This document shows, in pieces, positions 13,642 to 16,641 of a stretch of DNA of 47,589 nucleotides. Source of the stretch: an uncultured Candidatus Saccharibacteria bacterium. Lineage in GTDB: Bacteria; Patescibacteriota; Minisyncoccia; Phycocordibacterales; PALSA-1337. A program made the translations under genes and the position numbers. The DNA is taken from NCBI GenBank assembly GCA_964587205.1, contig CAZPKQ010000001.1:1-47589 (forward strand), written 5' to 3'. Every line of letters begins with the position of its first letter. Positions within the stretch are counted from its first letter, which is position 1. The notes beneath the pieces are model-generated. The model made no database searches. It saw nothing but the letters and a program-made list of their open reading frames with translations, and was not told the origin of the DNA.

Positions 13642-16641
13642 TTATGAAATAACAATATTGATCAATCTATTGGGTACAACGATAACTTTTGTAACCTTTT
13701 TGCCTTCCAACCACTTCTTGACAACCTCATTTTCCATAGCGATTTTTTCGATAATAGATTTGTCTGCATTTGAAGGTGCTTCGAAACTTCCTCTCAACTT
13801 ACCATTGATCTGAATTGTAATATTTACGATATCTTCTTGGACAAAATCTGGGTTATATTCTGGCCAAGGAGCGATATGAATTGACTTTTTATTTCCCAAA
13901 TTCATCCACAATTCTTCAGTAAAATGAGGGGCAAAAGGAGCCAAAAGTTTGATCAAATTAGAAAAATTTTGTTTATCGATAATTCCGATTTTTTCTACTT
14001 CATTTACTGTAATCATAAGGGTACTGATTGCTGTATTGAATCGTAGTGATTTGATATCATCAGTCACCTTCTTGATTGCTTTGTGAATGTATTTTGATAT
14101 TTCTTTTGTTTGATTTTGATCTAAGGTATTTGAAATTTTGTCATTCAATTTCCAGACTCTTTCTATGAATCTCCTTGTACCACTCAAGCCAGCAGTACTC
14201 CAAGCAATCTGTTGATCAAATGGACCCATAAACATTTCGTATAATCTCATCGAATCAGCACCATAGTTTTTGACTATATCATCAGGATTTACTACGTTGC
14301 CAAATCTCTTGGACATCTTCCTACCATCTTCACCCATAATAAGACCGACGTGCTGAAGTTTGATAAATGGTTCGGTCGTCGAAACTACTCCGATGTCATA
14401 CAAGAATTTGTGCCAGAAGCGGGCGTATATGAGATGGCGCGTTGCATGTTCTGCCCCACCAACATAGACATCGACTGGTGACCAATATTTTTCTTTTTTA
14501 TTATCAACCAATGCTTTGGAATTTTTTGGATCCATGTAGCGCAAATAGTACCAAGATGAACCTGCCCACTGTGGCATAGTATTTGTCTCTCTCTTGGCTT
14601 TGCCTTTGCAAACTGGACACTTAACATTGACCCATTTGTCTATCGAAGCAAGAGGCGACTCACCAGTACCAGTAGGTTCGTAAGATTTGACTCGAGGTAA
14701 TGTCACTGGCAAATCTTTGAAAGGTACGGGTACAATTCCGTTTGATTCTGGTCTTATCAATTTGCAATTTTCGCAATGAATAATTGGCATTGGCTCGCCC
14801 CAATATCGTTGACGCGAAAATACCCAATCACGAAGTTTGTATTTTGTAACCCACTTGCCACCAACAAAATCTGTAATTTCTTTTTTTATTTCTTCAGAAT
14901 TTTTGCCGTTGAATTGACCTGAATCCATAACAATACCATAACCGGTATATGCTATATCACCATTTAATCTCTGACGCCAATAAGGCATCTCCGAATGCGT
15001 CATAAAATCATCTGTAAGTGTTGAGAAAGATTCCCAAAATATTTCATGTTGGGCATTTTCTTCATCACTAACATTATCTTTTTCTTCATTTTCCAAATCA
15101 AAGGTAACCAACGATGTTAAAGCCAATCTATTTTGATCTTTATGAGCTGCAAAATATTCTGCTCTGACTATACCGCCCAAAACTTTGCCATTTGAAAGAT
15201 TTTTGTAGCCAGTCTCCTCTTGTACTTCTCTTTTGGCTGCTGTTATCAGATCTTCACCTTGTTCGACTCCTCCCATTGGGAAAGTTGTCCAAGGATGCTT
15301 TTTCCATTTCAAACAAAGAATCTTTCCATCTTTTGGATTTCTTACAATGACATGAACATTTCTTCTTTCTACTTTTTGCTTACCAGCCACTGGAGGATTT
15401 CTTTTATCGACGATGTGTGGAGCGATGACTTGCTTTATTGAAAGATTGTATTTTGTTGCAAACTCCCAATCTCTATCATCATGAGCGGGTACGGCCATGA
15501 CTGCGCCTGTGCCATAATCTGGCAAGACATAATCAGCAATCCAAAGTGGCACAGCTTCATTGTTTGCTGGATTAATAACCTTGATACCTTTCAATTCAAC
15601 ACCCGTCTTTTCTTTTTTTACATCTGTCCTTTCAATTTCGCTAATATTTTTTACTTTCTTTATATATTCTTCAACTTCGTTTCTATTTTCTACAATACTC
15701 AAAAATTCAGAGACTAGTTTGTGCTCTGGAGCAAGCACAACATATGTAACCCCAAACAATGTATCGGGCCTTGTCGTAAACACCTCAATTTCTTCCTTAA
15801 CTTTGGACTTTGCACTTTGCACTTTAAACTTTATCAACGCACCTTCGCTCTTCCCAATCCAATTTTTCTGCAAAATCTTTATCGATTCTGGCCAATCAAG
15901 CAAATTACCGCCCTTTTCATTTTTCAAATCAAGATCAGATAAAAGTCTCTCGGCATAGTCAGTAATTTTCAAAACCCATTGACGCATAGGTTTCTTTTCG
16001 ACAACAGTACCACAACGCTCACAACGACCATCCTCAACATCTTCATTTGCCAAACCAGTCTTGCATGAAGGACACCAATTTATCGGCTCATATGATTCAT
16101 AAGCCAAACCTTTTTCTAATAATTTCAAAAAGATCCACTGTGTCCATTTGTAATATTTTGGATCGGTGGTGTTGACCTCGCGCGACCAATCATAATCGAA
16201 GCCAAGTATTTCCAATTGCTTCTTGTATCTTGCAACATTCTTCTTGACCGAATCGGCCGGATTGGTCTTGGTCTTTAGCGCATAATTTTCTGCTGGTAGA
16301 CCGAAAGCGTCAAAGCCCATAGGATGTAGAACCGAGTGACCATTCATGCGCTTGAAACGAGAAATGACATCGGTGGCAATATAGCCTTTTGGATGACCAA
16401 CATGCAAACCTTCACCGGATGGATATGGGAACATATCGAGAACATAAAATTTCTCTCTTTTACCAACTTCTTTTGATTGGTACAATTTGGTCTTTTGCCA
16501 TTTCTTCTGCCATTTGGATTCGATGGGGGCGGGGTTATAGGTTTTGAGCGTTATCTTTTTTGTACTTACTGATGCGCTTTTTCTTGGCTTTTGCCCTTTG
16601 CCTTTTACCTTTTTTAATGCCTTAGATTTTACTTTTTTCAT
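13642..16641 (-). CDS. leuS: Leucine--tRNA ligase with an inserted Nudix-box domain and Lys-rich insertions
   Basis: Carries HVGH, CP1 motifs TTRPDTLFG and [29 protein letters not shown], and KMSKR. I prefer the ATG at 16641 ([11 protein letters not shown]...), with TATGAT 6 nt upstream. Confidence 0.95.
   Translation of the reverse strand: [999 protein letters not shown]

Follow-up and report, generated by a model that had tools for sequence, protein, structure and literature searches.

Bacterial leucyl-tRNA synthetases (LeuRS) of known structure, those of E. coli, Thermus thermophilus and Neisseria gonorrhoeae, share a class Ia core, a CP1 editing domain, an anticodon-binding domain and a C-terminal domain. 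Domains added to aminoacyl-tRNA synthetases (aaRS) are usually non-catalytic binding modules. A precedent for a class Ia aaRS with an extra catalytic domain is, by its model name, the NCBIfam entry NF040702, IleRS with an N-acetyltransferase domain. Here we describe the LeuRS encoded by leuS in a 47,589-nucleotide stretch of DNA from an uncultured Candidatus Saccharibacteria bacterium (contig CAZPKQ010000001.1, positions 1 to 47,589; the whole stretch is called the window). It resembles the solved bacterial enzymes (33-36% identity, template-modelling (TM) score 0.80-0.85) but, unlike them, carries a 157-residue Nudix domain in a CP1 loop, is missing the leucine-specific domain, and begins with a lysine-rich leader of ~30 residues. 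It also differs from the NF040702 precedent, in which the guest is a GNAT domain and the host IleRS; the window protein scores 72.5 bits with that model, against a cutoff of 1999 bits.

Among described Nudix enzymes, NUDT2 and the lupin hydrolase (1f3y) follow the logic proposed below for the insert: an aaRS makes diadenosine tetraphosphate (Ap4A) and a Nudix enzyme removes it. In the insert, too, an aromatic residue falls at the X-loop position, as judged by sequence position (PMC5389931). However, these enzymes are separate proteins that act in trans on LysRS-made Ap4A, whereas the insert is covalently part of a synthetase, and the similarity of 1f3y to the insert lies mainly in the box region. 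The Aquifex aeolicus protein aq_158 (an Ap4A/Ap5A/Ap6A hydrolase, also called 'Omnivore RNA pyrophosphatase'; 3i7u/3i7v) is, like the insert, a minimal single-domain Nudix protein. The two align over nearly the whole domain, including an aromatic-x-x-x-K stretch after the box, with a Foldseek TM of 0.65-0.74. Unlike the insert, aq_158 is free-standing and is without the 'IDKRNPP..GK..VER' strand and the 'HK..NR' motif, and identity is only ~18-25%. Its substrates range from Ap4A through Ap6A, and it strips ppp, NAD, FAD, Np4 and m7G from RNA 5' ends (PMC13145063); therefore, free dinucleotides and RNA caps are not exclusive alternatives as substrates. RppH/NudH belongs to the same superfamily as the insert, is of the same size, supplies its top NCBIfam matches, and is among its Foldseek matches. 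However, the RppH (PRK00714) models give only 21-28 bits against cutoffs of 116-259, TM is only ~0.55, and the charge of the insert is acidic rather than basic.

The insert lies within leuS as follows.

13642..16710, minus strand: leuS open reading frame, a bacterial-type LeuRS of 1022 residues in a single frame, with no stop or frameshift
14947..15417, minus strand: Nudix domain insert, aa 432-588, 157 residues (PF00293, AlphaFold2, Foldseek)
15205..15273, minus strand: catalytic, metal-binding Nudix box, aa 480-502, which agrees with GX5EX7REUXEEXGU in all its positions
15127..15162, minus strand: family-specific motif in the X-loop region after the box, aa 517-528, with Y519 17 residues past the end of the box

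A sequence-only reading of the window had placed a Nudix domain and a textbook Nudix box at these coordinates, and both stand. When the whole protein is scanned, the Pfam profile PF00293 (NUDIX) matches aa 449-565, and the score of 54.8 bits (E 1.2e-14) exceeds the gathering score of 21.1. The scan of the insert alone, which that reading had proposed, gives 59.5 bits (E 4.7e-16). Independent folding of the insert, a point which that reading had proposed to check, is supported by prediction as well. In the AlphaFold2 model of the whole protein, the predicted local distance difference test (pLDDT) score of the insert is ~87-94 per 10-residue block, about 90 overall. Modelled alone, the insert reaches a pLDDT of 94.5 and a predicted TM score of 0.87, with the strand and helix order of the Nudix sandwich and a helix at insert residues 57-69 that spans the REUXEE segment. 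A Foldseek search of the PDB with the insert returned 520 matches at E<=1e-3. Every one of the 50 best that were listed has a Nudix fold, with TM reaching 0.70, and the matches include NUDT15/MTH2, MutT-like proteins, MTH1, NUDX1, RppH and Ap4A/Ap6A hydrolases. Together, these results indicate that the insert is almost certainly a real, folded and catalytically intact Nudix domain, the fold being a predicted one. A chance occurrence of the box motif is ruled out by the Pfam score and the fold prediction.

An alignment with T. thermophilus LeuRS (1h3n) locates the insertion. Residues 56-430 of the window protein pair with Thermus residues 2-363, and residues 587-793 pair with 376-579. Thus, window residue 430 corresponds to Thermus 363 and residue 587 to Thermus 376, and ~156 residues replace a 12-residue loop (Thermus 364-375). 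The spacing between the AHDxRD and RDW anchors is 45-89 residues in relatives that are free of the insert versus ~216 in the window LeuRS, in agreement with the earlier statement that ordinary LeuRS is short at this point. The same reading had put the insertion after the end of CP1, and in this it has to be corrected: the insertion point is inside the CP1 editing domain, as the PF13603 profile is interrupted at position 146 of 185. In the published structure, the Thermus editing domain extends to about residue 417. That the segment might be a known LeuRS-specific insertion is ruled out by the Thermus alignment, as the loop is short in the bacterial LeuRS of known structure.

Outside the insert, the protein has the features of a bacterial LeuRS. 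The NCBIfam model TIGR00396 (leuS_bact) matches at 1009.7 bits (cutoff 548.4), the insert dividing the match into two stretches, and Pfam detects class I catalytic and anticodon-binding domains in addition to the editing domain and NUDIX. The editing profile PF13603 matches aa 282-435 with 216.8 bits over profile positions 1-146 of 185 only. A full-length AlphaFold2 model, whose input was an alignment of 52 LeuRS of the same architecture, has a mean pLDDT of 84.7, and only residues 1-53 are disordered (pLDDT below 50). In Foldseek, the whole model matches the E. coli, Thermus and Neisseria LeuRS at a target-normalised TM of 0.80-0.85, and LeuRS-tRNA complexes superpose on it. The features of the host enzyme are the following.

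16540..16710, minus strand: N-terminal 57 residues ahead of the LeuRS core, lysine-rich from M24; the TIGR00396 match begins at aa 58
16393..16404, minus strand: HIGH signature of the class I synthetic site, HVGH, aa 103-106; H103, V104, G105 and H106 are invariant
15418..15867, minus strand: N-terminal part of the CP1 editing domain, aa 282-431 (PF13603)
15760-15777, minus strand: T-rich motif of the editing domain, TTRPDT, aa 312-317
15469-15513, minus strand: GTG...AHDDRD segment of the editing domain, aa 400-414
14827..14946, minus strand: C-terminal part of the CP1 editing domain, aa 589-628, which resumes past the insert and ends in KYKLRDW
14305..14319, minus strand: KMSKS signature, KMSKR, aa 798-802, a sequence motif invariant in the 52-sequence alignment

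The 52 LeuRS that share the architecture of the window protein also served to gauge conservation. Among them, the HIGH, KMSKS, T-rich, GTG and AHDxRD residues are all invariant, including editing residues T313, R314, T317, G400, T401, G402, H410, D411 and D414. This pattern suggests that aminoacylation and post-transfer editing are left intact beside the Nudix module. Very probably, the window open reading frame encodes the working bacterial-type LeuRS of the organism, with LeuRS functions retained.

Two further features of the host enzyme were observed. In Thermus and E. coli, a leucine-specific domain lies ahead of KMSKS; the window LeuRS has none (14305-14340, aa 791-802): Thermus residues 580-637 are without a counterpart, and residue 793 joins straight to residue 799 in the alignment. 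The N-terminal leader has a net charge of +15 and an isoelectric point (pI) of 10.8, and similar basic leaders are present in several homologs; the true start of the protein may be M24 rather than M1. This disordered basic leader recalls the polybasic tRNA-binding appendages of some eukaryotic synthetases.

Within the set of 52, the Nudix region is the fastest-evolving part of the protein, with a mean pairwise identity of 46% (minimum 24%) versus 64-70% for the LeuRS parts. Amid this drift, R449, G480, G481, R494, E495, E498, E499 and G501 are invariant, and E486 is kept in 51 of the 52 sequences. At position 519, 37 sequences have Y, 13 have F and 2 have G, and K524, N527 and R528 are found in 51, 51 and 48 sequences, respectively. 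Invariant catalytic residues in a drifting domain are, as far as an alignment can tell, the signature of selection for catalysis. A degenerate pseudo-enzyme is ruled out for copies at the window insertion site (site B, see below), where the box is invariant.

The same alignment bears on the idea of a module that has no catalytic role and serves, akin to NrtR or CFIm25, as a nucleotide sensor or structural element that modulates movement of the editing domain. Its position in the mobile CP1 domain would suit such a role, and degenerate boxes (E to Q, R to A) do occur in some paralogous copies at another LeuRS position (site A, see below) and in the free-standing relative P0212. However, the catalytic box residues at site B have stayed invariant even though the domains have drifted to 24-46% identity, and binding-only Nudix proteins characteristically lose these very residues. 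A sensor is thus very unlikely.

The comparison with LeuRS of related lineages, suggested by the sequence-only reading, reveals the same fusion again and again. At least one Nudix domain is present in 118 of the 120 closest LeuRS (54-85% identity), with one to three copies in each; the source labels of these proteins include Candidatus Taylorbacteria, Paceibacterota, Parcubacteria and Patescibacteria, Taylorbacteria being placed by the NCBI taxonomy in the Parcubacteria group of Patescibacteria. A phmmer search with the 157-residue insert against 1.84 billion cluster representatives gave 469 matches at E<=1e-3. The best 150 are mostly LeuRS or LeuRS fragments, and 160 clusters (at 50% identity) match at E<=1e-10. 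A pattern derived from the closer homologs found 349 matching stretches among the GTDB species representatives. Of these, 80 loci were examined, and all 80 have a Nudix domain between the two halves of leuS at the same site; their titles include Paceibacterota and Taylor-, Kaiser-, Wildermuth-, Wolfe- and Yonath-bacteria. The LeuRS-Nudix fusion is an inherited, lineage-wide trait of Parcubacteria/Paceibacteria and is not peculiar to the window open reading frame.

Public databases list the fused proteins as plain 'leucine--tRNA ligase' with PF00293 precomputed. The full-text literature that was searched, including work on Parcubacteria LeuRS, holds no description of a LeuRS-Nudix or other aaRS-Nudix fusion, although not all journals were covered; two apparent matches, PMC7159879 and PMC12077802, proved irrelevant on reading. 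Thus, the architecture is widespread and already in databases, yet apparently undescribed in the literature.

These counts also dispose of an artefact, whether an assembly chimera, neighbouring genes joined by a frameshift, or a mobile or intein-like element. A mis-join is imaginable, since a free-standing Nudix gene adjoins leuS in one relative. However, the insert continues the leuS frame in mid-gene and is flanked on both sides by LeuRS sequence, and the same architecture is seen in all 80 independent GTDB assemblies that were examined and in over 100 protein clusters of varied origin. No flanking direct or inverted repeats beyond 10-15-mers at chance level and no endonuclease features were found, the base composition (GC content) is unremarkable, and the Nudix family accounts for the whole insert, its N-terminal strand included. 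The probability left to an artefact is negligible, and a singleton or assembly error is effectively refuted by the 118 homologs and 80 loci.

The Nudix module is found at other positions as well. Whole-domain insertions occur at no fewer than four places in the LeuRS of the clade.

Site A: between 'YAERLLxDLD' and 'LDWPxxIK', just ahead of CP1; window equivalent ~aa 262-272
Site B: the window Nudix insert, in the loop of Thermus 364-375; aa 432-588
Site C: past 'IHCxxC'; window equivalent ~aa 650-660
Site D: inside the 'KCPxC' knuckle; window equivalent ~aa 697-703

The collected proteins contain 344 Nudix domains: 206 at site B, 85 at site A, 3 at site D, 1 at site C, 43 in short free-standing proteins, and 6 elsewhere. 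Individual LeuRS have from zero to three copies; the window LeuRS has the site-B copy only. Sequence clusters mix domains from sites A and B with free-standing ones (for example, 31 A, 66 B and 4 free), which suggests that one Nudix family moved between LeuRS positions or was captured repeatedly. The free-standing relatives have the family N-terminal strand 'I..F.D..NPP..GK..VER' and the 'HK..NR' motif; because they share this strand, the initial 'linker' of the insert belongs to the Nudix domain.

The same family also occurs in a class II synthetase, ProRS (P0239), where it lies between the anticodon-binding and the C-terminal ProRS-C_1 domains. Four further ProRS clusters (P0285-P0288) have a Nudix insert, and more than 110 of the nearest ProRS are without one. 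The Nudix-bearing ProRS form a small clade, and the nearest insert-free ProRS are often labelled Woese- or Nanoarchaeota.

A second subtype of the family ('KHWSEDKY...') was observed at site A of P0027, P0068 and P0010 and in the free-standing P0212 (L089 4001-4549). Its box is often degenerate, reading GG.E.GQ...A.AEI.EETGY, with the first Glu changed to Q and the Arg to A; by their sequence, such copies may be inactive or may work differently. Homologs with whole-domain insertions include P0010, P0024, P0117 and P0022. Besides Nudix domains, some LeuRS of the clade carry an alpha/beta-hydrolase (PF06821/PF00561/PF12146) or a HAD domain (PF13419/PF00702), and with added domains, clade LeuRS reach a length of 1558 residues.

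The module can also be lost. P0031 (L001 45-2342; 75% identity over the aligned part) has an in-frame deletion of ~143 codons, corresponding to window 14953-15381. Its Nudix core is gone, and the first 12 residues of the insert are kept and are followed by YTGDGIVMD. P0031 is a natural 'delta-Nudix' LeuRS. Another LeuRS, P0037, has a short loop and no Nudix domain at all.

The genes around ten free-standing relatives, a small and non-random sample, were examined.

P0142 (closest of the free-standing relatives, 47% identity): its end is 2 nt upstream of a leuS that carries a Nudix domain, in the synteny of the window
P0271 (L002): starts 13 nt after argS, with IleRS ~0.9 kb further on
P0223: ~100 nt upstream of alaS
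P0212 (L089): in a metS-...-TatD-Nudix-...-HD_3-...-Nudix-leuS cluster, within ~3 kb of metS/leuS
P0194: two genes from proS, within ~3 kb
P0163: follows fpg (MutM), 4 nt downstream

No synthetase gene was seen near P0184, P0196, P0284 or P0234. Three of the ten are thus directly adjacent to an aaRS gene, versus ~5% expected per gene by our estimate of ~20 aaRS among ~800 genes with two neighbours each (binomial P ~0.01), a suggestive enrichment of free-standing relatives beside aaRS genes.

Some neighbouring genes were noted in their own right. The IleRS of L002 (6386-9889, 1167 residues) has a His_Phos_1 domain inside it, and a separate Nudix gene (9891-10316) follows directly. In the window, an HD_3/YfbR-like 5'-nucleotidase gene (16982-17566, minus strand) lies directly upstream of leuS, and in L089 an HD_3 gene lies between the Nudix genes near leuS, perhaps a nucleotide-hydrolase neighbourhood that recurs.

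The family is associated with several different aaRS, which points to something common to all of them. Whether the module is functionally linked to aaRS chemistry, or is merely co-expressed with it, we regard as evenly balanced. One alternative to such a link is a generic enzyme of nucleotide-pool sanitation or salvage, similar to MutT or NTP pyrophosphatases, which would act on 8-oxo-(d)GTP or non-canonical NTPs and be uncoupled from leucylation. It would ride in a tolerant loop of the essential, constitutively expressed LeuRS, which would secure its expression in a tiny, regulator-poor genome. NUDT15/MTH2, MutT and MTH1 are among the top Foldseek matches of the insert, and free-standing relatives are annotated at source as 'MutT (NUDIX family)'. 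The position of P0163 behind fpg, the dUTPase, ThyX and dCMP deaminase genes near other relatives, and the HD_3 nucleotidase genes near leuS in the window and in L089 also favour sanitation. The HAD and alpha/beta-hydrolase inserts in clade LeuRS, together with His_Phos_1 in IleRS, fit the picture of a 'carrier protein', as does the fact that the Nudix module can be lost. However, a neutral carrier does not predict one family at several LeuRS sites, in ProRS, and beside leuS, argS and alaS. Furthermore, the solved structures closest to the insert in sequence are ApnA hydrolases rather than MutT, and no MutT equivalog is attained: NF052459 (MutT1), the only such model to match, scores 16.9 bits, and its cutoff is 475. 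On balance, a sanitiser is unlikely, though second in rank.

One property that these aaRS share is that all make aminoacyl-AMP. Given also that the module is located within the editing domain, it could be an extra proofreading site, a Nudix-based form of pre-transfer editing that hydrolyses released mis-activated adenylates such as Nva-AMP or Ile-AMP. Against this, aminoacyl-adenylates are acyl-phosphate anhydrides and not nucleoside diphosphate-X compounds, and the canonical editing site of the protein is fully conserved. We know of no Nudix precedent for the hydrolysis of aminoacyl-adenylates, a task handled by HIT-family enzymes. Such a proofreading role is extremely unlikely.

Another shared property is the production of dinucleoside polyphosphates, as aaRS are an established source of Ap3-5N (PMC7705103), and several clues in the insert are consistent with a substrate of this kind. 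Its best solved relatives in sequence, by single-sequence and by profile search of the PDB, are Ap4A hydrolases. Lupin 1f3y is the top profile match (E 2.7e-8), mainly over the box half, and Aquifex 3i7u matches at E 4.7e-8 over profile positions 30-155, nearly the whole domain. The motif at aa 517-528 aligns to HYWYTLKGER of 3i7u. In PMC5389931, which cites Dunn 1999, a tyrosine in the X-loop ~17 residues downstream of the box is described as marking ApnA hydrolases. Y519 has this spacing, placed by sequence position only, and the residue is Y or F in 50 of the 52 LeuRS. In addition, the basic residues R449, K524 and R528 are conserved and would be appropriate for a long polyphosphate chain.

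A related possibility is a role in RNA 5'-end pyrophosphohydrolysis or decapping, similar to that of RppH or Dcp2, in which the module would use the synthetase as an RNA-binding platform and act, for example, on tRNA or mRNA with ppp-, NAD- or Np4-caps. RppH, Dcp2 and AvrM14 are also among the PDB profile matches of the insert, RppH models head its NCBIfam matches (far under cutoff), and aq_158, the solved protein nearest to it, deprotects RNA 5' ends efficiently (PMC13145063). In addition, tRNA is the common factor of LeuRS, ProRS, ArgRS and AlaRS, and LeuRS itself has the strongly basic N-terminal extension. However, RppH equivalog scores reach at most a quarter of the cutoff (best 28.2 bits versus 116, in the box region only), and no RNA-binding extension is visible in the Nudix domain. 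The Nudix domains at all sites are net acidic (mean charge -5, pI ~5.8), which speaks against RNA 5' ends and would mildly favour a small-molecule substrate over general RNA binding. Furthermore, RNase P normally yields bacterial tRNA 5' ends as monophosphates. A dedicated RNA 5'-end enzyme is quite improbable.

Of the explanations considered, we rank first that the module is an aaRS-tethered pyrophosphohydrolase of ApnN (dinucleoside polyphosphates) or 5'-polyphosphates, a tentative reading that falls a little short of even chances. ApnN or a 5'-polyphosphate as the specific substrate is, taken by itself, held with a shade less assurance still. The proposed mechanism would run as follows. The Nudix module, spliced into a surface loop of CP1, is predicted to fold on its own. 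Reaction of the enzyme-bound aminoacyl-adenylate with ATP or another nucleotide would give Ap4A, Ap3A or Np4N, by-products made by all aaRS. The module would hydrolyse such adenine-containing (di)nucleoside polyphosphates, and possibly the same groups where they cap RNA 5' ends. Tethered to an abundant, constitutively expressed synthetase, it would break down the by-product or alarmone where it is made and give back AMP and ATP. In the broadest version, the Nudix domain would be a third, functionally coupled hydrolytic site, an editor of by-products, and tethering would be a general means of aaRS-alarmone control in ultra-small, regulator-poor cells. Tethering would then take the form of insertion in ProRS and at three or four LeuRS sites, and of genes placed directly beside leuS, argS and alaS. 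This broadest version is doubtful.

Several observations weigh against an aaRS-tethered ApnN or 5'-polyphosphate hydrolase. No NCBIfam equivalog reaches its cutoff on the Nudix insert, and characterised Ap4A hydrolases resemble it only weakly (25-37 bits, ~20% identity). Neither NCBIfam nor the sequence, profile and Foldseek searches of the PDB assign the insert decisively to one subfamily. Foldseek ranks NUDT15/MTH2, MutT-like proteins and NUDX1 level with Ap4A hydrolases, so the fold leaves the subfamily unsettled, and the tyrosine of the X-loop is assigned from sequence position only. The module is dispensable for LeuRS, as the close relatives P0031 and P0037 are without it. Five of the ten neighbourhoods of free-standing relatives show no aaRS; P0163, behind fpg, points to 8-oxo-guanine sanitation, and dUTPase, ThyX or HD nucleotidase genes lie near several others. 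ArgRS, the product of one neighbour gene, is reportedly (in work ascribed to Goerlich, 1982) not known to make Ap4A. Finally, given the HAD, alpha/beta-hydrolase and His_Phos inserts, class Ia synthetases may be permissive carriers for small hydrolases.

The window is an ordinary chromosomal stretch. Its genes include alaS, leuS and those for MnmA, YceG, a sigma70-r4/HARE-HTH protein, the HD_3 protein, YchF, G6PD and tRNA-Ala, as well as Ddl, UvrC, UvrA, ClpB, RRF, MreB and MurA; an Rfam scan of the window found the tRNA-Ala gene only. Related contigs repeat the gene order YchF ... leuS - sigma/HARE-HTH - DUF8128 - YceG. In the window, leuS is separated from the sigma70-r4/HARE-HTH gene by a gap of ~680 bp (12962-13642) with a slightly higher GC content (0.44), and on related contigs this spacing is only ~60-150 bp. 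The gap has long open reading frames on both strands (211 aa on the plus strand, 184 aa on the minus strand); the plus-strand frame has no Pfam match, and the gap has no Rfam match. Other observations concern separate genes. In the YchF GTPase (17989-19200, minus strand), a short tandem peptide repeat, SAKEDLSPEALAKEDLSPEALAKGDG, lies between the G and C-terminal domains. An ATP-cone is fused to a Mrr-type restriction-endonuclease domain at 7047-7907 (minus strand), a bacterial SET-domain protein is encoded at 27210-27629 (minus strand), and 41283-41921 (minus strand) encodes a MazF/PemK-like toxin that is extended by ~60 residues at its N terminus.

A conserved pyrophosphohydrolase inside CP1, catalytically intact by its sequence, is unusual, as are its one to three copies per protein and its recurrence across a large uncultivated radiation. 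LeuRS can accept whole domains in the CP1 loop (Thermus 364-375) and in three or more further loops, which is useful for engineering. If the module does hydrolyse Ap4A-type nucleotides, the protein would be a natural 'Rosetta-stone' fusion that ties the much-debated Ap4A side reaction of synthetases to its disposal, and the physiological relevance of aaRS-made alarmones would become testable with one recombinant protein and its natural deletion variant. For the organisms themselves, the finding indicates that in Parcubacteria essential enzymes of translation serve as hosts for housekeeping hydrolases.

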